DNA of 64,000 nucleotides from Candidatus Micrarchaeota archaeon (GCA_014727975.1 WJMK01000017.1:3926-67925), one strand, 5' to 3'. Positions 11,713 to 50,746 are shown, numbered from the stretch's first letter. Translations and numbers: made by a program. Notes: generated by a model from the sequence alone, not told the origin.

Positions 11713-11812
11713 GGGCCCGTGGCGCAACCTGGATAGCGCGGCTGGCTTCGGATGCCTTCTCCTGATTGCAGGGGAAACCAGCAGGTTGCGGGTTCGAATC
11801 CCGTCGGGCCCA
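11713..11812 (+). tRNA. tRNA-Arg (anticodon UCG) with a ~25-nt intron at the canonical 37/38 position
   Basis: Folded by hand as follows. Acceptor GGGCCCG/CGGGCCC. D arm GCGC-AACCTGGATA-GCGC. Anticodon stem GCTGG/CCAGC, interrupted after CTTCGG by about 25 nt (11752-11776). T arm GCGGG-TTCGAAT-CCCGT. Discriminator A. No encoded CCA. Confidence 0.85.
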
Positions 11813-13113: not shown

Positions 13114-14829
13114 CTAGTTCTTTTTTGCTTTTGTCTTTTCTTCCTTGTCCCCTTTCTTGCGCATAAGGAAGTAAACAACAATGAGCACAACTACAAGCAG
13201 GAGCAGCCCGAGCAGGAGCATCGGGTCAATGCCTTCTGGCTCGAGTATCTCGACCGGTGTTTCCATGCTGTTGTCAAGGAAGCCTTCCCTCCCCCCATAT
13301 TCGGTAAGAACATGCATCTCAATGGTGGGCAGTTCATCCTCAGTAACAAGGAGCCCGGCAACGCGGACCACAGTGCTCTGGCCCGGGTCAAGGGTCCTGA
13401 CTTCTGTATCGTCCACTGTTGAGCTTGAAACATCACTGGAATAAAGCACCGAAGTGCGGAGGTAAACCGGCTCTTCCCCGCTGTTTGAGTATTTTACGGA
13501 AACTGCGTCCGCATCCGGGGAATAAGTTGCAGTGAGGACTTCAAGTGAAGAATCATCCACAAAAGAGACTACGCCCATATCCACATAGGCATTCAGTGCT
13601 TTCTCATAGTTGTACTTTGAAGAGCTGAAATAGGTTGTGAGGTTTCCTGTGAGGGTGCCCGGGTTTTCCACATTGAGCGGATAAGAGAAGCCCTTTGTTT
13701 CATCCCTTGCGAGCAGCTGTGCTTCAGAGTCACCAACAGAGCCTATAAGCTCCCCATCTGAATACACATTAAGCGAGGAAGTGACGTATGTGGCTATGGA
13801 GCCCTTGTTTTCAAGTATTATCTCGACTTCCCCTTTTGCAGTGTTATACTGGATCTTGGAAAGGCCCACATCAAGCACAACTGCTGGAAGCGGATAGCTG
13901 GAGAGGGGCTGGACTTCCCCGGGCTTGGATGAAGCGGCCTGTCCCATCTTCACAAAAACTGAAAACCTTTTTTCTTCAAAGTTTTCATTTATCCTCTTCA
14001 TGAGGTCGTATGCTGCAGAGGTGTAGTCCGGCTTTACAAGAATGGATGATGAAACCTCCCCTGAATTCACCAGGGAGTAAATCAGGTCATAAGTAGAAGT
14101 TGGGATTGTATTGGAGATAAGGAATATGGGGAACTCCCCTTCAGTTACAGATGGCTCAAAGAAAGTGCCGTCTGCAAAAACAATTTGCTTGTTTGCGTCA
14201 TAATTCGCAAAAAAGTTTTCCACAAGCTCATTGTTGTCCAGGTACTTGTCCCCGTTCTCTATCTGCTCGTGGGTGATGCCTGAGGAAGAAAGGGAATCAA
14301 GGACTTCCTGGTCCACGGTGCCGTAAACAAGCACAGGCCCGGAAGCCTGGGAAGAAATGAAATTGGAAACCTCTCCTGCGTTCTTCTTTGTCGCAAAAAG
14401 AACATATGAGCCCGAGTGCTTTGCATAAGAAAACAAAACAACAAGGTTGTAGCTATAGGCGGGGTCGGCAATTATGAAGGAGTCTGTCCCCGAGCGCTCT
14501 GCAAGCTCAAGGTTAAAGGAAAACGAATCGGAAGAAACAAGCTTCTCAGTCACTGTTGCGCCGTTGTTCTGTAGGGCGCTTTGGTAGCTTGCGTGCACAG
14601 GCTGGGTTTCAGACTCAATAAGGATGAGGCTTTTGGGGCCTACCTGGAGGACAGCATCCTGCAGATTTGTGGACGGGTAAACATAATAGAGATCATCTCC
14701 AACAACATTTGCATAAAATGCAGCAGAAGCAACATCCTTGTAATCAAGTGAATTGACCACTACCTGTGTTGCGCTGGAAAAGGCGCACAGAAAAACTAAT
14801 AAACCAAGGAATAAACTATACCTCCCCAT
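13114..14829 (-). CDS. surface protein: signal peptide, repeat/CARDB-like domains, C-terminal TM anchor with Lys-rich tail
   Basis: N-terminal signal MGRYSLFLGLLVFLCAFSSA. C-terminus MLLLGLLLLVVVLIVVYFLMRKKGDKEEKTKAKKN. Middle segments resemble CARDB/Ig-like beta domains. Confidence 0.65.
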   Translation of the reverse strand: MGRYSLFLGLLVFLCAFSSATQVVVNSLDYKDVASAAFYANVVGDDLYYVYPSTNLQDAVLQVGPKSLILIESETQPVHASYQSALQNNGATVTEKLVSSDSFSFNLELAERSGTDSFIIADPAYSYNLVVLFSYAKHSGSYVLFATKKNAGEVSNFISSQASGPVLVYGTVDQEVLDSLSSSGITHEQIENGDKYLDNNELVENFFANYDANKQIVFADGTFFEPSVTEGEFPIFLISNTIPTSTYDLIYSLVNSGEVSSSILVKPDYTSAAYDLMKRINENFEEKRFSVFVKMGQAASSKPGEVQPLSSYPLPAVVLDVGLSKIQYNTAKGEVEIILENKGSIATYVTSSLNVYSDGELIGSVGDSEAQLLARDETKGFSYPLNVENPGTLTGNLTTYFSSSKYNYEKALNAYVDMGVVSFVDDSSLEVLTATYSPDADAVSVKYSNSGEEPVYLRTSVLYSSDVSSSTVDDTEVRTLDPGQSTVVRVAGLLVTEDELPTIEMHVLTEYGGREGFLDNSMETPVEILEPEGIDPMLLLGLLLLVVVLIVVYFLMRKKGDKEEKTKAKKN

Positions 14830-15838: not shown

Positions 15839-17905
15839 CTATTCAGCAGTAGATTCTTCCTGTGTCTGTTCAGGTGGCTTTTTTGGATAAGAGACCTGCT
15901 TTTTCCGCTTTTCATTTTCGTTTTTCCACCACAAATAAAGGAAAGATAGGAACTGGAGCAGGGCAACATTCATCATGAAGCAGGGCTCGAGTATCCATAT
16001 GCCGGGAAGGGCAAGCAGCAATGGGATTGCGGATATGATTGCCTTTCTGGACTGGTTGAGGTTTTCCCTCCACTGTATCAGCTTCCAGTTTGCAAGGAAC
16101 AACAGGAGAAGGAATGCCCAGGGGACGAAGAGGTCTGGGAAATCAAATATGTGGATGAATAGCGGGAACTGGCAGGCAGGGCCTTCAACTTCATAGCCTA
16201 CAATAAGCTTAAGTACGCCTTCTCCAACCAGGCGCTCATTTTCATATACCCTGAATGGAACATAGTAGGTGCCGGGCTCGTAATCAGAAGGGACGGAAAC
16301 AAAAAGAAGGGCTTCCTTGGATTCACCATGGTAGATTGGGCTGGGAGTAGTTATTATGGCAAACATGCTGGATTGCAGGCCTTCTGCCTGGAGGCTGGGC
16401 GCATACAGGTAGGCTGTCCCATTCCCGACATTTGTGAGGTTCAGGGTGAAAAAGTCTTGTTCGCCAACCATCATGCCCAGGGTTTCTTCCTCCACCTCTA
16501 TCCATGGCTTGTTTATCGTCAGGTAAAGGTTGGCCATTGTGGAAAGCATCAGGCTCGGGCCATTTTCTGGCTTTCCCACGCATTGGATACGGCCTTCGTA
16601 GTCCCCATCGTAATCTAGGATTTCGGTTGGGGGCATCTCCACTATGATTTTGCCGGTTATGGTTGAATTGTCAGGGATTTCGGTGGATTCGAGTTCAACA
16701 CGCGCATACTCTGCAAAATCAGCATCAATAAAGCACTCAACATCATTTAGCGCAGTTGTGGAATAAAGGGTGAAATTTGCCTCTCCTGGAAGAGGATAAT
16801 TAATTATTATGTCAATGTCCTCTGGATTTATGGAAAAATGCTCATATGCGGGGGGGACATAAGGAGGGGGCTCAACCGGCTCTTCCGGGGGAATGCCTAT
16901 GTGCGGGCCCCCGGGCCCGCTTGGGGGGGAAGGTGGCCTCTCCCCAACCCTGAAGGTTACCGAGTCAGACCCTACCTGCCCTTCGCTGTCATTTGCATAT
17001 AGCTCAAGCGTATGGGTGCCGTCTTCCACAATGAGTATATACGGTATTGTGCAGTCAGGCATGTCCGTCCTTTGCCCATCAAGGAGGTACCAGCAGGAAT
17101 CCAGAGGATAGTAAGAATAAATCGTATATGTGAAGGGGATTTGGTTTATGGTGTATCCCGTCTCTTCAGGAGAAAGGATTGTGACCATGGGCGGGAAATT
17201 GCCCGGGCCTATTCCGTTTATGTGGATTACGTATCCGCTTGTGTATCCGCCCAGTGAAAGAACAACAGAATCATTTATGGAAGTGATTGCAGTGTCGATG
17301 GTTTCAAGCGTATCATCAGGAAGGGTGCCAACAACAAGGTAATCTACATCAGGGATTATGGGCGAGCCGCCATCATCAAGGGCTTCTGTAACTGTGATGT
17401 TGACTGTATTCCCTGTGCGGTTTTCCACAACAGTATAGTTGCCTGCAAGCCAGCCGTTTGTGGGAAGGAGCTTGACCCTCTCCGGGCTGGAGAGGTCTTC
17501 GGAATCAGAAATGAAAACAAAGGGGATGGAAGGATACCATGCCCTGAAGCTCGAGAGGTCCAGGGGAAGGTAAACACAGTTGGTTGGGGGCACCGAAGTT
17601 ATCTGCAGGGGGTAATGGGATATCTCTAGGTAGTCCCCGGGATTAATCCCGTCTGCATACGCCATTGCGACCCATTTTTCCTGGAGCTCTGCTGCGGTGT
17701 CTGCACAGAGCCTTAACTCTGCATCCGGGTTTTCCAGGGAATTGTCTGCATATGAGTAAGAGCCATTCTGGGGGCCCCAGCCCTGGGCAGAATAATCATC
17801 ATAAACAAGATTGATGACAGAATGGTTGTTTGCATCCACTATGTATGGGTAATAGTAGGAAAAGGAAAGGGAAAGCAGCGCTAGCAAAAATAAAATGCGC
17901 TTCAT
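15839..17905 (-). CDS. membrane-anchored surface protein (688 aa), paralogous N-domain, Pro-rich linker, about 3 C-terminal TMs
   Basis: Signal MKRILFLLALLSLSFS. Its N-domain is shared with the upstream 565-aa protein. Contains an Ig-like segment (LDG...GTHTLELYANDSEG) and the linker PPSPPSGPGGPHIGIPPEEPVEPPPYVPP. The C-terminus is hydrophobic. Confidence 0.65.
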   Translation of the reverse strand: MKRILFLLALLSLSFSYYYPYIVDANNHSVINLVYDDYSAQGWGPQNGSYSYADNSLENPDAELRLCADTAAELQEKWVAMAYADGINPGDYLEISHYPLQITSVPPTNCVYLPLDLSSFRAWYPSIPFVFISDSEDLSSPERVKLLPTNGWLAGNYTVVENRTGNTVNITVTEALDDGGSPIIPDVDYLVVGTLPDDTLETIDTAITSINDSVVLSLGGYTSGYVIHINGIGPGNFPPMVTILSPEETGYTINQIPFTYTIYSYYPLDSCWYLLDGQRTDMPDCTIPYILIVEDGTHTLELYANDSEGQVGSDSVTFRVGERPPSPPSGPGGPHIGIPPEEPVEPPPYVPPAYEHFSINPEDIDIIINYPLPGEANFTLYSTTALNDVECFIDADFAEYARVELESTEIPDNSTITGKIIVEMPPTEILDYDGDYEGRIQCVGKPENGPSLMLSTMANLYLTINKPWIEVEEETLGMMVGEQDFFTLNLTNVGNGTAYLYAPSLQAEGLQSSMFAIITTPSPIYHGESKEALLFVSVPSDYEPGTYYVPFRVYENERLVGEGVLKLIVGYEVEGPACQFPLFIHIFDFPDLFVPWAFLLLLFLANWKLIQWRENLNQSRKAIISAIPLLLALPGIWILEPCFMMNVALLQFLSFLYLWWKNENEKRKKQVSYPKKPPEQTQEESTAE

Positions 17906-19599
17906 GTTGGATCCACCAGCTTCTTGGTGATTGAGTATACCTCGTACATCCAGTCATAGATGTCAAAGATGTAGGTATTCTTGTTTATTACGTCCTTGTC
18001 GTTTGTCCAGCCTGGCCCAACACAAGTTTTGTTTGGTACCAGCAGTGGGTAGTCTTCTATCTCTGAGCCATTGTATGCAAAATCTATTGGATTCGAGCCG
18101 CCGCTGTGGTAGCCGTTCACTATTACTGAATAATCCCCTACGTTCGGGGTTAGGTTTACCGGGGATCCAGGAGAATAGAACTTATTGCAAGTCGGTATCA
18201 GAGTAACCGTAACATAACCGGAAGAATTGCCCGTAGCTGTACCCTTTGATTCGCTGCTAAGGCCCCTGGGGGTGGCCCCGTCAGTCCAGGTCTGTATTGG
18301 GGCAAATGGGTTGAGCCCGTTGGTTTCAGTTATCTCATACCTTGCATTCGGGACTTCGTCTCCGTTGGAATTGTTTATGTAGAATGTTACGTTGTAGGGG
18401 CGGCCCCATTCAGGGAAAACATTGGTATAATTTCCGTCTATCCAAACATGGAGGTACCATACTGGGGAGATTGAAATTGTGGCGGTCCCAAGATTGTCTG
18501 CCTTGGAGCATTCTGCAATCTGGTTTGTGGAATCTGCATAACCCCTCAGGTTTACGTTACCTGCAAGGCCGGTTGCATTGAATATGTAATTCCGGGTGGT
18601 TGAGCCTCCCCCGGAAGCCAGGTCTTCTGTAATTGGATAATTGACAGTGTCAGAATATCCTGAGCCGGAAACATTGAACTGCAGCACAAAATCAGTTGTA
18701 ACATTCACATTTCCGGCATTGGTAATGGTTATTGTTACGTTGCTGCTGCCTCCATAGGGAATGGAGCCAGGGCTTGGGGAAACAGTAGTGCGCAGGTTGG
18801 CCCCTATGCAGATGGGGTCTCCCAGGCCGTCAACAACCACGTAGCGGTTGTGGACGTGCTGGTCATCTACTGTGCCCACAAGGGAAAGGCCCACAGGGAG
18901 GTCTGAAGAATCATTTGCGATTACTGCATCATCGCACTCGTTCCCGAAATCATCATCACAGAGGGCAATGAGCATACTGCGCCCTGTTGTGCTGTTCAGG
19001 CCCCAGTCCGCAGCCCCTGGTCCCCTTGTAATAGAGCCAAGCTCAGTCTGGAAAGTGATTGAATTTACATTGGCATTGACAAGCCCGGTTGCCTGGCTGA
19101 ACGAGCGGGAGACAGAATAGCTTCCCTCAAGCCACCCATCTGCATAATCAACAGGCACCAGGTCAGGGGAACCGGTGCCATCAGAATTATCAGAGATTAA
19201 TGCATGGATCCTCCCAGGAAAGGCGGAAACAAAAACAGGAGGCGTCCGGGTAGAGTCCTTGAACTGGGAAAATGCAAAAGAATCAACAGGAGTGTAGTAG
19301 CAGGGGCCTGTGCCAATAGAAGTGTAAACCATGGTGTTCGTTGAGCCTGAAGTGAGATTCTTGCTTATTGGAACCATTATCCAGGTTCCGCTCACATTGG
19401 CAGTGTAAGCAGCGGCGATATACTTCTGCCCCTCATTGCAGAGCTCAAGGGCAAAATCAGGGTTGTTTCCGAAAGTGTCCACATACACCTTGAAGGCGGC
19501 AGAGGATTCTACATTGGTGGTTACGTTGCTTGCATCCACTATGCTTGCAGATGCGAAAAGAAGCGGAAGGCAAAACAGGAATATTGCTATTTTTTTCAT
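17902..19599 (-). CDS. secreted protein (565 aa) with CARDB-like domain
   Basis: Signal MKKIAIFLFCLPLLFASA. CARDB-like segment (NVTITITNAGNVNVTTDFVLQFNVSG...ECSKADN). Many N-x-S/T sites. Its 3' end overlaps the start of the downstream gene (15839..17905) by 4 nt. Confidence 0.65.
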   Translation of the reverse strand: MKKIAIFLFCLPLLFASASIVDASNVTTNVESSAAFKVYVDTFGNNPDFALELCNEGQKYIAAAYTANVSGTWIMVPISKNLTSGSTNTMVYTSIGTGPCYYTPVDSFAFSQFKDSTRTPPVFVSAFPGRIHALISDNSDGTGSPDLVPVDYADGWLEGSYSVSRSFSQATGLVNANVNSITFQTELGSITRGPGAADWGLNSTTGRSMLIALCDDDFGNECDDAVIANDSSDLPVGLSLVGTVDDQHVHNRYVVVDGLGDPICIGANLRTTVSPSPGSIPYGGSSNVTITITNAGNVNVTTDFVLQFNVSGSGYSDTVNYPITEDLASGGGSTTRNYIFNATGLAGNVNLRGYADSTNQIAECSKADNLGTATISISPVWYLHVWIDGNYTNVFPEWGRPYNVTFYINNSNGDEVPNARYEITETNGLNPFAPIQTWTDGATPRGLSSESKGTATGNSSGYVTVTLIPTCNKFYSPGSPVNLTPNVGDYSVIVNGYHSGGSNPIDFAYNGSEIEDYPLLVPNKTCVGPGWTNDKDVINKNTYIFDIYDWMYEVYSITKKLVDPT

Positions 19600-19601
19600 T
19601 A

Positions 19602-21173
19602 TTACACCGTAGATATCGACTTTCCAATGTTGGAAAGCACCTGGTTGATGTTCTGTAGCGCAGAAGCTATTAAAGCATTTGTAGCAGTGTCCATTGTCGG
19701 CTCTGAGGAAGTCGGGGGCTCAAGCAGTGAATCAACTGCAAAGGTAAGGGTTGCTATGTTGCTCCCCCCATATTCCACAAAGACCGTAAGGTTTGCATCA
19801 TTGTTGTAGCGGGTCGGGATAAGTATGAATGTTTCGTTGCTTGGGAAGGGCCCGGTGTTGTTGTAAAGGGATTTCTCAGGCTGGAGAGGAACAAAAATTA
19901 TGAATCCGTCTGTTTCCTGGACCGTAAGGTTCGCAGTGACCGGAACCCCGCCGTTGGTTACGGTTATGTTGAATATGTTCGGGGCACCTGCCTTAAGGGT
20001 GGGGGAGCCGGTCACGCCCCCAAGGGTGGTCACATTTACAGATGCACCACGGTACTTGCCTGCATAAATCCAGGTGCTTGCAGTTGTTGCAAGCTGGTTC
20101 ATGTTCTGCACAGATGACTTTACCTGGCTTTCATAAGAGGGATTTACAAGTGAGGAGCGATAGGTGGGGGTAAGGGAGTCATATGTTGCAATGGAAAGAT
20201 TTATCCTGCAATAAGACGGGCTGGTAACTTCTGCATATATCTCATGGCCATATGGATCCGGGACATTGTAGCGGGTAGGGGAAAGCGCAAAAACAGCATT
20301 CCCTGCTGCATTTGTTTCCATCAATGCCCTTCCAACATAATCCCTGCCAGGGTAAAGATTTGGGTAAAGGATATTGCGCCCGTTGGTTTCAACCACATTG
20401 ACAACTGCGTGGTCGATTGGTGCGGTGGAGTTTTCATATGTTACCAGAAACTCCACATCATAGGGAACTGCGGTTTTTGGGAAAACATCTGTTGGCACCC
20501 CATCTATCAGCACAGATATCTCGCACTCTTCCGGATAAACGTAGAAAAGGTAGTGGTCTTCCTTTGGGACCATATACTGGAAATCAAAATATGTGCCATT
20601 GTAGCCAAGGACGGTGGAGATATTGGTAACGAATACCGGCTCCTGATGAGTCCCATTGTCGAACTTGAGCACCCCAAGGAAAGAATGGTTTTGCAGGTAG
20701 ATGTAAGCACAGGAATAGGTTACTGCACCAATGGTGCAGGGGGCGGTTGCAAGGGGGTCTGCAAAGGTGCGGAGGGGGCTATCTGAAAAGGTGGAAAAAT
20801 TAAGGCCGCTGAATGCGCTAAAGGAGCTGAACATTCCGGTGGAATTGAAATCAGATGCAGCAGGGGAATAAACGTCAGAAAGGTATGGCTTGTTGCTTAT
20901 GCGGTCAGAAACCACAATCATTGATTCATTATAGTATGTGCCATTGGGGTAGTTAAGGTAAAATGTATCCGGGGGGCCCACAGTTTGGTTGGATATTGAG
21001 AGATTAGGGTCTGATGGGGAAAAAGGGTCCATCCATCCGACTATCCCTGACCAGTAATGGGTGAGCTCCTGCCCGCCCAAATCAGTATAGGATATGTTGC
21101 CGCCTTCTATATTTACATCGTCTGCAAGGGACAGGGAGGTCGCTAAGAGGAGCGCCAGCAGCAGGTTCCTCAT
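19602..21173 (-). CDS. secreted protein (523 aa), first gene of the surface-protein operon
   Basis: Signal MRNLLLALLLATSLSLA. Sequon-rich. Shares a beta-domain with the 565-aa protein (VLIDGVPTDVFPKTAVPYDVEF...VVETNG versus VWIDGNYTNVFPEWGRPYNVTF...ITETNG). Confidence 0.65.
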   Translation of the reverse strand: MRNLLLALLLATSLSLADDVNIEGGNISYTDLGGQELTHYWSGIVGWMDPFSPSDPNLSISNQTVGPPDTFYLNYPNGTYYNESMIVVSDRISNKPYLSDVYSPAASDFNSTGMFSSFSAFSGLNFSTFSDSPLRTFADPLATAPCTIGAVTYSCAYIYLQNHSFLGVLKFDNGTHQEPVFVTNISTVLGYNGTYFDFQYMVPKEDHYLFYVYPEECEISVLIDGVPTDVFPKTAVPYDVEFLVTYENSTAPIDHAVVNVVETNGRNILYPNLYPGRDYVGRALMETNAAGNAVFALSPTRYNVPDPYGHEIYAEVTSPSYCRINLSIATYDSLTPTYRSSLVNPSYESQVKSSVQNMNQLATTASTWIYAGKYRGASVNVTTLGGVTGSPTLKAGAPNIFNITVTNGGVPVTANLTVQETDGFIIFVPLQPEKSLYNNTGPFPSNETFILIPTRYNNDANLTVFVEYGGSNIATLTFAVDSLLEPPTSSEPTMDTATNALIASALQNINQVLSNIGKSISTV

Positions 21174-21250
21174 GGGAGGTATAACTACCGCATAATTTAT
21201 AAATAAAATATGTGCTTATAATTAGCAGGAATAATGAAAGGTGGATAGTT

Positions 21251-21930: not shown

Positions 21931-24465
21931 ATGAAAAAAACCATTTCAGAGCTTTACAGGGAACGCTTTCCCGAGGCCACTGCGGTGCAGAAGAAGGCGA
22001 TTCCGCTTATTCTTTCCGGGAAAAATACCCTAGTGGTTGCTCCCACAGGTAGCGGCAAGACTGAGGCTGCTGTGCTGCCGGTGCTTGAAAAAATTCACGG
22101 GGAAGCGGGGATTGCTGCATTATACATAACGCCACTGCGTGCATTGAATAGGGACATCTGCAAAAGAGTGGAATGGTGGGCTGAGCACGCAGGCATCAGC
22201 CATGCGGTAAGGCATGGGGACACGCCGCAAAGCGAAAGGGCGAAGCAAAGCAGGAAACCGCCACAGCTGCTGATTATTACTCCTGAAACGCTGCAGGCAA
22301 TTCTTGTGGGGAAGGTATTGAGGAAGCATCTTGCAAATGTGAAATACGTAATTGTGGATGAACTGCATGAACTGGTGGACAACAAAAGGGGAGCGCAGCT
22401 TTCAATGGCTTTGGAGAGGCTTGGGGTGGTTGCGGATTTCCAGAGGATTGGGGTAAGCGCAACAATTTCGGATGAGCAGGAGGCAGGGAAACTGCTGTGC
22501 GGAGTGGGGAGGAAATTTGAGGTTGCTGCAGGGGGGAAAAGAAGGAAGATGGACATTTCTGTGGTAAAAAGCTATGGGGGGGAAGAAAAGGCATTTGAAA
22601 AGCTTATTGGGATGATCGGGGACAAGCAGCGCATACTTTTTGTGAACACACGGAGCACTGCGGAAGCCATGGCAACTTACCTGAACCTGAAAACAAAGGA
22701 AATCGATGTGCACCATGGATCGCTTGCTGCAGGGCTGAGAATTAACACAGAAAAGGAATTCAAGAAAGGAAAAGTGCATACGCTTATTGCTACCTCTTCG
22801 CTTGAGCTGGGGCTGGACATCGGGGGGATTGATGAAGTGATACAGTTTGGATCCCCTAGGCAGGTTGCAAGAATGGTGCAGCGGGTAGGGAGAAGCGGGC
22901 ACGGGGTTGGAAGGCTTCCTGTGGGCAAGATCATTGCAGGGGATATTGACGATTACCTTGAGGCGAAGGCAATCGTAGACAAGTGGGGGGAGGGGTACCT
23001 GGAAAAAAGGGAGGCTGTGAGGGGGGCGATGGATGTTGTGGGCCACCAGGTTGTGGGGATGCTGATGGACAATGGAAAAATGAAGCAGGAAAAGATATTC
23101 AGGGTGCTTAGCAGGGCCTACTCTTTTGGGCTGGATAAAGAAGGATTTGAGAAAGTAGTAGAGCAGCTCTGGAGGGAGAAGCTGGTGCTCATTGAATATG
23201 GGAACCTGATCTTGAGGAGATACGGGAGGGAATATTATTTCTACAACCTGACAACAATTCCAAAGGAGAGGAAATTCAAGCTGAGGGACAGGATTACCAA
23301 CAGGATTATCGCCTCCCTAGATGAAGTATTTGTAGTGAACCTTGCACCTGGGGAAACATTCTCATCAAAAGGGAAAGTATGGACAGTTGTTGAGATTGAG
23401 GCAGATGAGCTGATTGCGGAGCCTGCAATGGGCTTTGACTTTGTGATTCCGGATTGGGTGGGAGAAGAGATTCCAGTTGAGTGGGAAGTTGCGAGGGAGG
23501 TTGCGAAGCTCAGGGAAAAGGAAGTGAAGCTGGCTCCTAAAAAGAACGAGATTTACCTGGAGATTGTGGATGATGTAGCTGTAGTGCATTCATGCTTCGG
23601 GAACAGGGTAAACGATTTGTTTGCAAGGATATTTGCAAAGAAACTGGGCGAGAGGCTAAAGTTTGAGGTAATTGCAGTTGCTGATCCGTACAGGGTAATG
23701 CTGAAGTTCCCTTACCCTGTTGCAGAAGAATGGATAGAGGGAATATTTGAGATGGGGGATGTGGGCGTTGAGGCTGAAAGGGCACTGGAAGGCTCTTCGC
23801 TGCTTAGGATGAGTTTCCTGCATGTGGGTAGGCTGTTTGGGTTATTTGGGGAAAATGCAGAGGTAAGCAGCAAGATGGTAAGGTTCATGCGGGAAAGCCC
23901 GGTGTACGAAGAGGCTGTAGAGGCAGTATTCAGAAGGAGGCTGGACATAGAGGGGGCAGAAAAGGTTGTGGAAGGGATTAGAAAGGGGAAATACAGGCTG
24001 AGGGTGGAAAAAAGGAAACGTCTCTCTATGCTTGGAAGGGTCGGGGTCGGGAGGCTGAGCAGGGGAGATGCAATGGGAGCATTCGAGCCAAGGGAATCAA
24101 TGATACGGCTGTTCAGGGAAGAGCTGGAAAACAAGAAGGTAACGCTGAAGTGCCTGAATTGCGGGGCAATTCGGATTACAACGGCAGGAAAAGTTGAGGA
24201 GGGCCCAAAATGCCACAAGTGCAGGCGACAGGCCCTTGCACCCATGATGAAGCATGCAACAAAAGAGGAAGAGAAGTACATGACAGGGATACTCAGGGCA
24301 TATGGGAAGAGGGGGCTTTATGCACTACTTGTATATGGGGTGGGGGCAAAAACTGCAGACAGGGTGCTGAGGAGGCTGCACAGGGACGAAGAGTCGTTCT
24401 TTTTGGATTTGATAGAAGAGCAGAAAAAATTCATAAAAAACAAGAAATACTGGAGCGTGAGGTAG
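21931..24465 (+). CDS. lhr: Lhr-like ATP-dependent DEAD/DEAH-box helicase
   Basis: AVQKKAIPLILSGKNTLVVAPTGSGKTEAA, VIVDELHELV, SATI, and helicase C motifs (LIATSSLELGLDIG, QRVGRSGH). C-terminal Cys4 ribbon (CLNCG...CHKC). Confidence 0.9.
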   Translation: MKKTISELYRERFPEATAVQKKAIPLILSGKNTLVVAPTGSGKTEAAVLPVLEKIHGEAGIAALYITPLRALNRDICKRVEWWAEHAGISHAVRHGDTPQSERAKQSRKPPQLLIITPETLQAILVGKVLRKHLANVKYVIVDELHELVDNKRGAQLSMALERLGVVADFQRIGVSATISDEQEAGKLLCGVGRKFEVAAGGKRRKMDISVVKSYGGEEKAFEKLIGMIGDKQRILFVNTRSTAEAMATYLNLKTKEIDVHHGSLAAGLRINTEKEFKKGKVHTLIATSSLELGLDIGGIDEVIQFGSPRQVARMVQRVGRSGHGVGRLPVGKIIAGDIDDYLEAKAIVDKWGEGYLEKREAVRGAMDVVGHQVVGMLMDNGKMKQEKIFRVLSRAYSFGLDKEGFEKVVEQLWREKLVLIEYGNLILRRYGREYYFYNLTTIPKERKFKLRDRITNRIIASLDEVFVVNLAPGETFSSKGKVWTVVEIEADELIAEPAMGFDFVIPDWVGEEIPVEWEVAREVAKLREKEVKLAPKKNEIYLEIVDDVAVVHSCFGNRVNDLFARIFAKKLGERLKFEVIAVADPYRVMLKFPYPVAEEWIEGIFEMGDVGVEAERALEGSSLLRMSFLHVGRLFGLFGENAEVSSKMVRFMRESPVYEEAVEAVFRRRLDIEGAEKVVEGIRKGKYRLRVEKRKRLSMLGRVGVGRLSRGDAMGAFEPRESMIRLFREELENKKVTLKCLNCGAIRITTAGKVEEGPKCHKCRRQALAPMMKHATKEEEKYMTGILRAYGKRGLYALLVYGVGAKTADRVLRRLHRDEESFFLDLIEEQKKFIKNKKYWSVR

Positions 24466-46888: not shown

Positions 46889-47830
46889 ATGGCTCTGGAT
46901 CTTACAATAGCCGGGACGATAGTTGCATTGTCTATAGTGCTATCCGGGCTCTTAATCGGAATCGGAAGGGCAATTGGCTCCCACAAGGTGGAGTTCTTTG
47001 GAAGAGAGGAGCTAATCCAGGCAGTCATAAATGCCGCACTTGTAGGGGCGTATGCGACAATTACCCTCACCGCAACAGAAATCAGCAGGGAGATTGCAGG
47101 GGACGGGATTTGTGTCGAAGGGGACGCAATTGAAAACCTTCAATGTGTGTATGGGGGGCTTTCTGACAACATCTACATCCTCCTTGTAGAAAGCCTACAC
47201 CTCCACCAGACTGTTGCATACTACCAGTCCCTTGTGCTGAATTTTTCAACCTTTACCATCCAGCCCCTTGCTTACCTCTCTTCAGTTTCTATAATCCTGG
47301 AAGCCCAGGTCCTTGCCCTCCAGCAGCTCCTGCTGATTTCTGAAATCCATGTCCAGCTCCTTGCATTTTTCGGGCCCCAGCTGCTCACCTTCTTTTTCCC
47401 TCTTGGGCTGATATTCCGTGCATTTTTTTCAACCCGCAAGCTTGGAGGGTTCCTTATCGCCCTCTCAATAGGGCTTTACCTTCTCTACCCCTCCCTGATA
47501 ATGGTTTTCCCCCAGCCGGAGCTCAATGGAACAACAGCCGGCCTTGAATCCATGAACAACAACACAAACTACACGATTACCCCTATACTTGACCTAAATG
47601 ACAATTATGCAATTGCAGGAAAGCTGGACAACATGACCAACACAACCGCGGGCGCAGATTTTACAGGGGACGTAACCACCTCGCTCCAGCAGCTCACCTC
47701 TGCAACATCCTCACTTACAATCTTCATACTCATAGCCCCATTATTTTCAATAATCCTGACCTTGATATTTATAAAGGAAGTAACTGATATATTTGGAGGA
47801 GAGTTCTTCTATTCGGTGGGAATGTTATGA
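46889..47830 (+). CDS. polytopic membrane protein (about 6 TM), VirB6/TrbL/CedA-like candidate
   Basis: 313 aa with 5-6 hydrophobic helices plus a sequon-rich loop (NGTT...NNNTNYT...NMTNTT). A 4-nt gap upstream and a 4-nt overlap downstream. Confidence 0.5.
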   Translation: MALDLTIAGTIVALSIVLSGLLIGIGRAIGSHKVEFFGREELIQAVINAALVGAYATITLTATEISREIAGDGICVEGDAIENLQCVYGGLSDNIYILLVESLHLHQTVAYYQSLVLNFSTFTIQPLAYLSSVSIILEAQVLALQQLLLISEIHVQLLAFFGPQLLTFFFPLGLIFRAFFSTRKLGGFLIALSIGLYLLYPSLIMVFPQPELNGTTAGLESMNNNTNYTITPILDLNDNYAIAGKLDNMTNTTAGADFTGDVTTSLQQLTSATSSLTIFILIAPLFSIILTLIFIKEVTDIFGGEFFYSVGML

Positions 47831-48606
47831 TAGCAAACAGAGTCGTCACATTTGCCGCACTTGGCGGGGGCGTGCTTGCCCTTCTCTTAGCCTTTGTAAG
47901 CGGCCAGGTATTGTTCGCATTGATTGCGTCATTGTTTTTTGCGCTTTCAATCATAATCTGGAAGTATGGATATCTCCTCATCCCGTTTTTCACTTCTGCC
48001 ACAAACATAATTGAAGTCCGGGGCAGCTACAACATTCCCCCTACAAGGGATTGCATCACCAAGAGGACAGGAGGGGGGTTCTACGCGTCCAAATTCCTTG
48101 AAATAAAGTTTTATGAAAGCATGATAGATAAAAGGGAAAACGACCGCTCAAGCATGATAGAGTCTTTTGAAAAGGCCCTGGCATCCCTCAAGAACGTGCT
48201 GAAGATTTCACTCATGGTTTCTTCTGTGGACCTTACCAAGCACATTGACAAGATAAAGGCCAAGAGAAGCGCTGCAGAAAGCAAGAGACGCCGTCTTCCG
48301 CCAAACAGCGAAGAGCTTGTCCGCATAGACAGGGAGATTGCAATGTGGAACCGCCTTCTTGAGAGAATAACCCATGGTGACCGCTCCCTTGAAGTCACTG
48401 CATTTGCCCAGACAACCGCGTTTGGGGTCACAAGGGAAGAAGCAATCTCCAAGGTCAGGAGGCAGGCAAAGGAAGCCCGCACAATTATCTCCTCTACCTT
48501 AGGGGCGGATGTAACTGAGCTCCTTGACACAGACATGATAAAATGCTTTGAGTGGAGCTACTTCATCCCTGCGGACACAGAACAGATGCGGGATGAGGTG
48601 TTCTGA
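47827..48606 (+). CDS. membrane protein with 2 N-terminal TMs plus a soluble domain, VirB3/VirB4 N-domain-like candidate
   Basis: TMs FAALGGGVLALLLAFVSG and LFALIASLFFALSIIIW, followed by a charged helical domain of about 190 aa. Its stop overlaps the ATPase start (TGATG). Confidence 0.45.
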   Translation: MIANRVVTFAALGGGVLALLLAFVSGQVLFALIASLFFALSIIIWKYGYLLIPFFTSATNIIEVRGSYNIPPTRDCITKRTGGGFYASKFLEIKFYESMIDKRENDRSSMIESFEKALASLKNVLKISLMVSSVDLTKHIDKIKAKRSAAESKRRRLPPNSEELVRIDREIAMWNRLLERITHGDRSLEVTAFAQTTAFGVTREEAISKVRRQAKEARTIISSTLGADVTELLDTDMIKCFEWSYFIPADTEQMRDEVF

Positions 48607-50048
48607 TGGACCTGAACGAACACCTTACAAGCCAGATGGCCCAGCGCCTTTTTGTAACACACCCTCCTGAGCCCAGACCCTCACTCCTCCTCTCCAGCCC
48701 CACAGAAGGGATATATGTTGGCAAGACCCGCTGGCTCAATGTCCCGGTTTTCTGGGACTACCACAAGCTCATCAACTCCCATATTGCAATTGTAGGAATT
48801 ACAGGAGCAGGGAAATCATATCTTGTAAAGACTTTTCTCACAAGGGCAGCCCTAGTCTGGAACTCAAATGCCATCATCCTGGACTGGACAGGAGAATACA
48901 ATAAATGGGTCCGCCAGGCAGGAGGGAGGGTAATCACCTTAGGAAGGGAGTCCCTCAACCTCCTTGACCTTGCTGGCCTCAAGGTTGCAGAGCGAATAAA
49001 GCAGATAATGTCTGCATTTGAAATCCTCCTGGACCTCCACAATTTCCCTGATGAGCGCTATGAGATAGAGGAGGCACTTGAAGAAGTTTATGAAAAGGTA
49101 AAGAAGCCTACGCTTGCAGACCTTGTTTCTGTTCTTGAAAAGAAAAAGAAAAAGCATTCAGCGCGCCTCCTCAAGACATTTCTTGTTGAAGGAAGTGATT
49201 TCTTTTCCAGGGAATCCACCCTTGAGCTTGAGAAGCTTGCTGAATCCGGCCTGGTATGCATAGACCTCCATTCCCTCCCAACAGAAGAGATGCGCTCCCT
49301 TACTGGGCTCACAATCCTCCAGTTCCTAAAGGAGAAGATGCGGAGGGAGGAGCTAAAGGAAGCAAAAGGAATCAAGCTTTTCGTGGTTGTTGATGAGGCA
49401 TGGAAGATTGCAAGCGATGAAAGGAGCGATGTAATAACCATCGTCCGTGAAGGCCGAAAATACAACTTCAGCCTGATTGTCGCATCCCAGAACCCTACAG
49501 ACATGCACAAGACCATCATATCGAACGTTGGCACAATGTTCGTCCTCCGCCTCGTCCTCCGCGAGTATAAGGACTACATCCGAAATTCACTGAACTATTC
49601 ACAATACATAGATGATGCAATATCCGGTTTTGGGGTAGGGGACGCTGCAGTAAACATGATTTTTTCAGAGCGCTCTGAACGCGCTCACACATTCCTTCTT
49701 GACAAGATAGACGGGGAAGAGCCTCTCTTTGTCTATACAATAAAGGTGGGCAAAATGACAATTGAAGTAGAAAGAGAACAATTTTCAAGAATGCTTTTTG
49801 AGCTTGGGCTTACAGATGAGCAGATAAACCTCGTGAAAGTTGAGTTTGAGCGGGGGGACGGAGTCCTCGAGGCTTCAGCAATCGTCACTCTTCTGGAAAA
49901 ATTCGGATATTCCCATACTTCCATAATGACATTCCTCCGTCAGCTGGGTGTTGAAGAGAAATTCATCGTGGAGGTATTCTCGCTTACAAGAAGGAGGCGT
50001 GCAACAAAAGGGGTTGTCGACCTTAAGCTGAAAGAAGGTGAGGAGTAA
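48606..50048 (+). CDS. VirB4/TrbE/HerA-superfamily (DUF87-type) ATPase
   Basis: Walker A IAIVGITGAGKSY. Walker B LFVVVDEAWKI. A REGRKYNFSLIVASQNPTDM motif typical of VirB4/HerA-FtsK-class ATPases. An extra C-terminal helical domain of about 100 aa. Confidence 0.8.
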   Translation: MDLNEHLTSQMAQRLFVTHPPEPRPSLLLSSPTEGIYVGKTRWLNVPVFWDYHKLINSHIAIVGITGAGKSYLVKTFLTRAALVWNSNAIILDWTGEYNKWVRQAGGRVITLGRESLNLLDLAGLKVAERIKQIMSAFEILLDLHNFPDERYEIEEALEEVYEKVKKPTLADLVSVLEKKKKKHSARLLKTFLVEGSDFFSRESTLELEKLAESGLVCIDLHSLPTEEMRSLTGLTILQFLKEKMRREELKEAKGIKLFVVVDEAWKIASDERSDVITIVREGRKYNFSLIVASQNPTDMHKTIISNVGTMFVLRLVLREYKDYIRNSLNYSQYIDDAISGFGVGDAAVNMIFSERSERAHTFLLDKIDGEEPLFVYTIKVGKMTIEVEREQFSRMLFELGLTDEQINLVKVEFERGDGVLEASAIVTLLEKFGYSHTSIMTFLRQLGVEEKFIVEVFSLTRRRRATKGVVDLKLKEGEE

Positions 50049-50746
50049 TGGAGGAAATAATAAAGATAAAGGCAAAACGGACCAAACCCCTAAAGGAGCT
50101 AACCCCCCTGCTCGGCTCACTTGGATTCAGCAAGATGAGCTACACAAAAGATACTCTTACGGTTGAAAAAGTAGAATCAGAGGACATCTCCGGAAAGCCA
50201 TACCTCTTCTACAAGATTGAACTTTCCCCTAAATCAATACTGATACGGTACCTCCTTCCTTCCCCTGAGAGGAGGATTGCACGCAGCCTCCAGATGGGGC
50301 TTCTCTCCCTCAATGTTTTCCGGATAATATCAAGCCACTACGATGTCAAGGTTTCTTCAGTTTACCCCTTCTATTATGCTCTGCTGAATTCGCTTTCCGA
50401 TGCACTTGAAAAGGAAAAGCTGGAGGCCATGTCAGAGCTAAATGCGCTGAAGACCAGGCACGTTTCCCTTGACAAGAAGTACAAGGACCTTGTGCGCTCA
50501 AGCGAGCAGAATGCGCGCATCCTTGTGGAGGCAGAGCGCAAAAAAGAGGAGCTTGAGGAAAAGCTCAAAAAGATGGAAGGCATCAACGACGAAGTCCTCC
50601 AGGAGCGCCTCTTTGAATGGATAAGGACTCATGACGGAGAGATTAACACATACGAGTTTGCGAGGATAAACTCCACCCCTGTAGGCAGGGTTGAAGAAGG
50701 CCTAAACCACCTGATAAAAAACGGCTATATAAAGCGGAGGTCATAG
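50048..50746 (+). CDS. coiled-coil protein with C-terminal winged-helix-like domain
   Basis: A central heptad-rich segment (EKEKLEAMSELNALKTRHVSLDKKYKDLV...EELEEKLKKMEG), then LFEWIRTHDGEINTYEFARINSTPVGRVEEGLNHLIKNGYIKR. The start overlaps the ATPase stop (TAATG). Confidence 0.45.
   Translation: MEEIIKIKAKRTKPLKELTPLLGSLGFSKMSYTKDTLTVEKVESEDISGKPYLFYKIELSPKSILIRYLLPSPERRIARSLQMGLLSLNVFRIISSHYDVKVSSVYPFYYALLNSLSDALEKEKLEAMSELNALKTRHVSLDKKYKDLVRSSEQNARILVEAERKKEELEEKLKKMEGINDEVLQERLFEWIRTHDGEINTYEFARINSTPVGRVEEGLNHLIKNGYIKRRS

Follow-up and report, generated by a model that had tools for sequence, protein, structure and literature searches.

Filaments and attachment organelles of DPANN archaea have been seen by cryo-tomography, and the reports state explicitly that the proteins forming them are unidentified (PMC11420986; PMC8975820). 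At the level of single proteins, a role in host contact was proposed for surface proteins found in 'Ca. Mancarchaeum acidiphilum' Mia14 and in Nanobdella aerobiophila (PMC5498576; bioRxiv 10.1101/2023.10.27.564410). Homologues of SLP_Mh, a secreted and glycosylated S-layer protein of the DPANN phylum Micrarchaeota, were reported in 38 of 49 genomes (bioRxiv 10.1101/2021.04.28.441871). Here we analyzed three adjacent genes, called A, B and C below, in a 64,000-nt stretch of DNA from a Candidatus Micrarchaeota archaeon (GCA_014727975.1 WJMK01000017.1:3926-67925; hereafter the window, with positions counted from its first letter), whose source genome comprises 1.07 Mb in 55 contigs. We conclude that A, B and C are probably subunits of one glycosylated, DPANN-specific cell-surface assembly, whose association and order we infer from shared domains, gene neighborhood and natural gene fusions. 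It would belong to the non-covalent systems for surface display or anchoring, and its families and architecture are undescribed. Full-text literature searches found no description of the triad.

The three genes lie on the minus strand and encode proteins of 523 (A), 565 (B) and 688 (C) residues, separated by a 2-nt gap and a 4-nt overlap. The open reading frames (ORFs) and junctions match exactly what had been claimed by an earlier reading made from the DNA alone (the sequence-only reading). The A/B junction is GTG TAA TA ATG, and the B/C overlap is ATGA with GGTGGATCC just before it. The A/T-rich element upstream of A is probably the archaeal promoter of the operon, to judge from its TATA-like sequence, and its distance of ~27 nt from the ATG of A suggests a leaderless transcript or one with a very short leader. 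Hydropathy and visual inspection show a single N-terminal hydrophobic segment of the Sec type in each protein, with the hydrophobic core followed by small residues (SLA/DD, ASA/S and SFS/Y), as expected from the signal peptides claimed for all three. Further hydrophobic segments were detected by hydropathy in C only; about three of them lie within residues 586-665 and are followed by a Lys-rich tail. This agrees with the claim that only the last protein has transmembrane (TM) helices, about three at its C-terminus. The proteins are also as rich in N-x-S/T sequons as had been stated: the counts are 19 (A), 16 (B) and 12 (C), corresponding to 3.63, 2.83 and 1.74 per 100 residues. The genome has a median of 0.235 per 100 residues, a 95th percentile of 1.27 and a 99th percentile of 2.69, so that the three proteins exceed the median 7-15 fold and belong to the top 1-3% of the genome. 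The genome also has an STT3/AglB gene.

Pairwise alignment of profile hidden Markov models, which had been proposed as the check on the relatedness of the three proteins, was significant for A and B and for B and C (hhalign; family alignments of 25 A, 41 B and 28 C orthologues). The N-termini of B and C match in BLASTP (27% identity over 182 residues, E 2e-7), and B 1-294 matches C 1-264 in hhalign (98.3% probability, E 1.4e-14). Thus, the shared N-terminal domain seen by the sequence-only reading is supported, and it is longer than the ~170 residues assigned to it. A and B match in BLASTP (38% identity over 53 residues, E 1e-5) and in hhalign (B 383-548 with A 219-352, 98.5% probability, E 4e-15), which confirms the beta domain described as common to them. 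Between A and C, BLASTP found no match and hhalign no significant similarity. The description of three paralogous proteins is therefore valid only via B. Because B combines a C-like N-terminal region with an A-like C-terminal unit, it is a mosaic. In addition, A 214-370 matches A 373-521 (hhalign, 82% probability, E 1e-5), indicating an internal duplication in the C-terminal half of A.

Hereafter, the N-terminal 'TEGGN' beta domain of A is called the head, its last 310 residues the A module, the beta-sandwich plus helix segment found twice in A and once in B the unit, and the homologous N-terminal regions of B and C the N-domain; coordinates are collected in Table 1. The AlphaFold2 model of B (mean predicted local distance difference test score, pLDDT, 90.8; predicted template-modelling score 0.71) is a rod of ~5 beta-sandwich domains and a terminal helix at residues 540-562, which is modelled with lower confidence (pLDDT ~70-78). 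In the model of A (mean pLDDT 73.9), the head (~40-213) is confident, with pLDDT ~90, and the helices of the A module are residues 345-371 and 496-522. All three helices, two in A and one in B, have hydrophobic residues at a/d heptad (3-4) spacing. The C-termini of A and B are amphipathic helices and not the combination of a motif, a TM segment and a basic tail. Residues 277-370 of B belong to the CARDB family (PF07705, E 2.4e-5, 24.9 bits against a gathering cut-off of 22.7), one domain only, and match the PDB entry 2l0d in profile searches (E 5.5e-10). CARDB/Ig-like segments had been claimed earlier; an Ig-like domain lies in the stalk of C, and giant proteins of the phylum have it as well. 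The stalk of C does contain a Pro-rich segment (~321-352), as had been claimed, and it is not adjacent to the membrane, because ~220 residues (353-575) lie between. Homologues of this intervening part match the beta-sandwich families PF17957 Big_7 and PF10633 in precomputed Pfam assignments. In the membrane region of C, Cys578 and Cys642 are invariant alignment columns among orthologues, and the number of TM hairpins varies between orthologues.

The A module is found behind many different heads. A profile of the last 310 residues of A gave 94 matches among 1.84 billion representative proteins, and the module is the extreme C-terminus in every complete carrier among those listed. The carriers are mostly 500-570 residues long; longer ones have 703, 896, 917, 965, 1191, 1279, 1385, 1698, 1965, 2363 and 5133 residues. 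The parts preceding the module are unrelated to each other, span 200-4800 residues, and include NosD/beta-helix domains, LamG with MAM and FG-GAP, PQQ-type propellers with CARDB, PKD arrays and SBBP repeats. Wherever the neighboring genes could be read, giant carriers also have B and C downstream (1698 residues in loci L002/L035 and 2363 residues in L024). A carrier of 1965 residues (L023) is followed by a B homologue; between the latter and the contig end lies a short ORF without a match to any C profile.

We scanned relative loci with domain profiles of the A head, the A module, B, the C N-domain and the C stalk. In all 27 distinct relative loci with both flanks, an A-module protein is followed by B and then by C on the same strand, usually with abutting or overlapping genes, and orthologues were co-located in every locus checked. 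This answers the proviso of the sequence-only reading that its interpretation would fall if orthologues were never neighbors. Syntenic loci reach a Nanoarchaeota single-cell genome (L046) and a Woesearchaeota metagenome-assembled genome (L047) at ~35% identity. Two extra membrane genes lie between A and B in three loci (L044 6683-8855, L029 and L041; Anstonellales-type). In the L044-type insertion, they encode a 581-residue multi-TM protein with a Gly-rich tail and a 123-residue membrane protein. Of 151 genomes sampled from the phylum, the same ~15 have strong full-length matches to the A module, B and C, and four more have divergent versions; this distribution is based on metagenome-assembled genomes that are ~90% complete. 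Three of the five genomes of the window's genus have the triad. This shared presence and absence indicates that the triad is inherited as one unit and is accessory. Among A orthologues of ~520 residues, mean pairwise identity is 0.69 and 0.72 in the helices, 0.55-0.58 in the sandwiches and 0.50 in the head; in C, it is 0.62 in the N-domain versus 0.28 in the membrane region. Thus the helices of A and the N-domain of C are conserved best, which is the pattern expected if they are protein-protein interfaces. It was also observed that A is split into two ORFs in one genome of the same genus (L022, 5863-7355), that C is split in another (L012/L026, genome G129), and that several C orthologues contain one in-frame stop (TAA or TGA) within the matched region. 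These are due to either decay of the operon or assembly error.

Variation at the locus is informative about the order of the subunits. In the window and in the close-relative contigs L022 (genome G082), L026 and L027, the gene order is Lhr, (orphan), A, B, C, MetAP and D. In a genome of the same family (G062), MetAP and Lhr are ~1 kb apart and the triad is absent. In a genome of the same genus (G037), MetAP is followed by a 28-residue relic of the C-terminus of C (86% identical) and by a relic of Lhr, which indicates that the triad was lost by deletion rather than gained. Another genome of the genus (G070) has a single gene between MetAP and a CPSF-like nuclease gene, that is, at the position of the triad. 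Its 752-residue product, P0111, joins an A head (residues 39-212, E 2e-66) to the stalk and membrane region of C (222-552, E 1e-56), and by profile comparison it lacks the A module, B and the C N-domain. A second protein, P0112 (714 residues), has the same layout of A head, C stalk and TM region; its gene follows an ACP_syn_III_C gene, at the locus that holds the triad in a Bilamarchaeaceae genome (L006). In both proteins, the junctions fall at domain borders, and the membrane region of each is typical of its own lineage. The fusions thus skip the A module, B and the C N-domain as one block. This is the strongest indirect evidence that these parts link the head to the stalk. The window's own genome encodes a 717-residue paralogue (contig C5:492-2642, plus strand) that has a TEGGN-like N-terminal domain and a Cys-rich middle part. 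Its membrane region and the one in C are homologous (hhalign 94%, E 9.5e-8; 57% identity over 40 residues). Since this paralogue has the same single-gene layout of head, stalk and anchor as P0111 and P0112, the genome carries both layouts.

From these results, the following assembly can be proposed. The TATA-like box ahead of A would drive transcription of all three genes, their translation would be coupled, and the proteins would be exported via Sec and probably N-glycosylated by AglB. C would be the base, with a polytopic C-terminal anchor, an Ig-like and Pro-rich stalk and a conserved N-domain pointing away from the membrane. B would be a soluble connector rod with the C-like N-region at one end and the beta-sandwich and heptad helix unit at the other. 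A would be the tip, using its two units as a C-terminal docking module and carrying an exchangeable N-terminal head, which is the ~180-residue TEGGN domain here. Two interface schemes may be considered. Like could pair with like, so that the two units of A and the one of B form a three-helix bundle and the N-region of B pairs with that of C. Alternatively, the N-domain could bind the unit, so that the base is only an acceptor, the shaft has both ends and the tip is only a donor, possibly giving a fibre. In either scheme, a binding head would be held a constant distance away from the membrane and would serve adhesion, either to a host cell or to some other surface. Adhesion is our best guess for the function, and it is suggested by the head types, the lifestyle of cultured DPANN archaea and the published proposals for similar single proteins. 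The sequence-only reading had suggested a membrane-anchored base carrying two secreted partners. The A-B and B-C homologies, co-location, co-occurrence and fusions support this suggestion, the physical assembly itself being deduced from them.

Several observations weigh against a head-bearing adhesive assembly. The model of A is only moderately confident outside the head. Fold searches yield only generic beta-sandwich chains and point to no ligand or activity. Two other sequon-rich secreted proteins of the genome (C44:17696-21550 and C24:3847-5577, both minus strand; 1285 and 577 residues) end in a TEGGN-like domain, with a TEGGN...W.G..G start and a ...NG...(F/Y).(L/V)M.P...Y.FY end as in the A head (hhalign 91% and 40%). 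Because the domain is seemingly C-terminal there, the A head could be an attachment domain instead of a ligand-binding head at the distal end. Finally, identity to the L027 relative is 76% for A and 73% for B, compared with 83% for MetAP and 79% for Lhr. A and B diverge only slightly faster than their housekeeping neighbors, unlike the usual fast-diversifying host-recognition adhesin.

Database searches did not connect the triad with a known family. In Pfam, NCBIfam and PHROG scans of A, B, C and the neighboring gene D (Table 1), CARDB in B was the sole match, and PDB sequence-profile searches with A, B and C gave CARDB-type domains only, with nothing for SlaA/SlaB. The homologues fall in 43 (A), 69 (B) and 54 (C) clusters, none of which is functionally named. 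As the sequence-only reading had noted, no known S-layer or pilin family is recognizable: A, B and C have no S-layer match in NCBIfam or Pfam, PF07752 and TIGR01567 gave no hit at all, inspection found no class III signal peptide of the type IV pilin/archaellin kind, and no type IV pilus (T4P) genes lie beside the triad in the loci examined. Archaeosortase/PGF-CTERM or sortase LPXTG signals had no NCBIfam or Pfam match at E <= 0.1 in A, B and C, nor did cohesin, dockerin or SLH domains match in Pfam. Foldseek was run with the A and B models against the PDB and with A also against viral structures (BFVD). B matched generic Ig/MG-domain chains only. The candidates returned (mastigoneme, alpha-2-macroglobulin/complement, integrin legs and two-domain laccases) were rejected as relatives, being generic beta-sandwich chains with TM-scores of 0.1-0.25. 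For class II fusogens (fusexins) and viral spikes, the PDB and BFVD searches showed no specific fold match and PHROG no match.

The tripartite assembly has to be weighed against other explanations, the first being a polymer. Since the N-domain occurs in B and C and the unit in B and A, C would be acceptor only, A donor only and B both, if the N-domain binds the unit. B could then polymerize head to tail, giving a base of C, a shaft of (B)n and a tip of A. The distribution of the two shared modules fits this base, shaft and tip logic exactly, and B is modelled as a rigid rod of five beta-sandwich domains with a less confident terminal helix. However, there is no sign that B is made in excess: translation of the genes is coupled, and tandem copies of B were seen in none of the loci scanned. 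No chaperone, sortase or ATPase is conserved beside the triad in the loci examined, and the paralogous domains could equally self-pair, N-domain with N-domain and unit with unit. We consider a polymeric surface fibre, in place of a 1:1:1 complex, unlikely. In donor-strand fibres (chaperone-usher pili, archaeal threads, TasA/bundling pili), the next subunit supplies the strand that an Ig fold lacks; in the monomer model of B the sandwiches are complete and modelled with high confidence, which argues weakly against this type. A broader proposal, that the triad is a new T4P-independent appendage for host attachment, with the N-domain as acceptor, the unit as donor, C as the membrane base, a polymerizable B, and A as a cap with swappable heads of 200-4800 residues, is speculative, and we regard it as doubtful.

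A different possibility is that the triad is an S-layer component or anchor resembling SlaA/SlaB, in which the stalk of C holds a lattice or canopy of A and B, or the main S-layer protein. In its favor, these are secreted, sequon-rich proteins with a beta-sandwich construction, one of them being a membrane-anchored stalk. How SLP_Mh is anchored was described as not known, and the same report proposed a second, stalk-like protein (bioRxiv 10.1101/2021.04.28.441871). The TEGGN-like domain that apparently ends two other secreted proteins of the genome also fits. The triad is found, however, in ~15-19 of 151 genomes of the phylum and is deleted within the genus, so it is not near-universal; A, B and C match no S-layer family, and heads of up to 4800 residues on the same module are ill-suited to a lattice subunit. 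Moreover, other contigs of the genome hold weak matches to TIGR01564 (Methanocaldococcus-type), covering its N-terminal and C-terminal parts, at C10:1-2322 (minus strand) and C33:4553-5500 (plus strand), with E 8e-6 and 2e-5, both below the cut-off. These probably represent the real S-layer protein of the genome, perhaps split by assembly. A role of the triad in the S-layer thus seems quite unlikely. It would be less plausible still that the three glycoproteins, secreted or anchored, are independent of each other, became neighbors only through tandem duplication and domain shuffling, and form no joint assembly. The shared domains do show common descent, and many strain-specific CARDB, PKD or propeller surface proteins are known from Micrarchaeota (PMC5498576). 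Against independence, the gene order and close packing persist across phyla where identity is 30-50%, presence and absence of the three coincide in the sampled genomes, and the fused variants lost the whole connector as one block. Cargo of a mobile element or provirus, such as a viral spike or fusogen that became inserted among housekeeping genes, is very improbable. The patchy distribution and the 'empty' MetAP-Lhr site in a genome of the same family would suit it, yet there is no PHROG match and no meaningful viral structure match, the G+C content of the operon is the same as that of the flanks (~0.49), and no integrase or repeats were noticed. The gene order of the flanks is also conserved in relatives, and the relics of C and Lhr in a genome of the same genus indicate deletion, not gain.

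Table 1. Positions of the triad genes, their domains and associated elements in the window
Feature	Position	Strand	Description
Gene A	19602-21173	minus	523-aa ORF; secreted, sequon-rich, proposed tip subunit
A head ('TEGGN' beta domain), residues ~36-213	20535-21068	minus	Exchangeable in A-family proteins
A C-terminal module, residues 214-523	19605-20534	minus	Two tandem beta-sandwich + heptad helix units
Gene B	17902-19599	minus	565-aa ORF; secreted, proposed connector
B N-terminal region, residues 1-294	18718-19599	minus	Homologous to the N-terminal region of C
B CARDB domain, residues 277-370	18490-18771	minus	Pfam PF07705 match
B C-terminal unit, residues 383-565	17905-18453	minus	Beta-sandwiches + helix 540-562; homologue of the segment present twice in A
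Gene C	15839-17905	minus	688-aa ORF; proposed membrane-anchored base
C N-terminal B-like domain, residues ~17-264	17114-17857	minus	By hhalign; best-conserved part of C
C stalk, residues ~265-575	16181-17113	minus	Ig-like 'SCWYxLDG' domain, Pro-rich linker ~321-352, then 353-575
C membrane region, residues 576-688	15842-16180	minus	Cys578, ~3 hydrophobic helices, Cys642, Lys-rich tail
TATA-like box, A/T-rich, TTTTATTTATAAAT	21194-21207	minus	~27 nt upstream of the ATG of A; read from sequence; probable operon promoter
Gene D	13114-14829	minus	571 aa; signal peptide, repeated ectodomain, one C-terminal TM helix, Lys-rich tail

Besides the triad, gene D is a possible fourth component. In 13 relative loci, a homologue of D is no more than 9 kb away from the triad, and in five of these it is the gene immediately upstream of A; in the window, the oppositely oriented MetAP gene lies between D and C. 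Internal repeats of D were detected with 97% probability (hhalign). D was tried as a relative of A, B or C and rejected, as it has only weak CARDB-like similarity (17-30% probability). By eye, its N-terminal repeats of ~100 residues resemble alpha/beta cell-wall-binding-type modules; they have no family match. In locus L004 (12678-15568), genes for a MoxR-type AAA ATPase, a DUF58 protein and a VWA protein come directly after a D-A-B-C cluster. The Lhr-like helicase gene of the window (21931-24465, plus strand) has been deleted independently in several close relatives (L020, L021 and L025 were compared), leaving relics of 33-48 residues or none, and the triad is retained in L025. Elsewhere in the window, Rfam identified a tRNA at 11713-11812 (plus strand, 55 bits) that was missed by ARAGORN, consistent with an intron-containing archaeal tRNA. 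Four overlapping genes at 46889-50746 (plus strand) include one for a HerA/DUF87-type ATPase (48606-50048), and the other three have no family match.

If A, B and C do form one assembly, it would provide a compact parts list for host attachment by DPANN archaea, consisting of a docking module that marks candidate adhesins in metagenomes and two partner proteins. The natural bypass fusions predict the order of assembly, and ~100 clusters of hypothetical proteins would become a testable system. An A module followed by B and C can also serve as a search handle for the exchangeable binding heads of uncultivated archaea. Should the triad be only an ordinary accessory glycoprotein complex, the value would lie in the annotation of three orphan families.

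Several known systems resemble the triad in some respects and differ from it in others. The strain-specific secreted PKD, beta-propeller, CARDB and LamG proteins of Mia14 and the pectin-lyase-like or lectin-like proteins of Nanobdella aerobiophila come from the same kind of organism and have the same types of heads (PMC5498576; bioRxiv 10.1101/2023.10.27.564410). They are presented there as single proteins, and the accessible passages mention neither a conserved C-terminal module nor partners such as B and C. SLP_Mh differs from the triad in its size (101 kDa) and its TIGR01564/TIGR01567-type domains (bioRxiv 10.1101/2021.04.28.441871); A, B and C lack such domains and are present in ~10% of genomes. 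Sortase-assembled and chaperone-usher pili likewise consist of three paralogous or mosaic subunits from one operon, of which one is anchored, one is the adhesive tip and one has both ends. Unlike in pili, the triad showed neither a sortase, usher or chaperone nor a class III signal peptide, and its polymerization would be hypothetical. The cohesin-dockerin pairs of the cellulosome and the SLH scaffoldins of Firmicutes also use a terminal docking module to mount many unrelated domains on an anchored scaffold. However, folds and families are unrelated, the triad is archaeal, and its proposed docking module has ~310 residues in two beta-sandwich and helix units; the resemblance is functional only. 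In SlaA/SlaB of the Sulfolobales, a secreted, heavily N-glycosylated outer protein is held non-covalently by a beta-sandwich partner with a C-terminal membrane anchor, and the two genes are adjacent, as are those of the triad. The two systems share no sequence or family relation, and the triad has three components with a dedicated connector. The stalk of SlaA/SlaB has a trimeric coiled coil and a single C-terminal TM helix, whereas C has ~3 TM segments that form a polytopic anchor. Furthermore, the triad differs from SlaA/SlaB in that it is accessory in its distribution and its outer subunit carries exchangeable heads.

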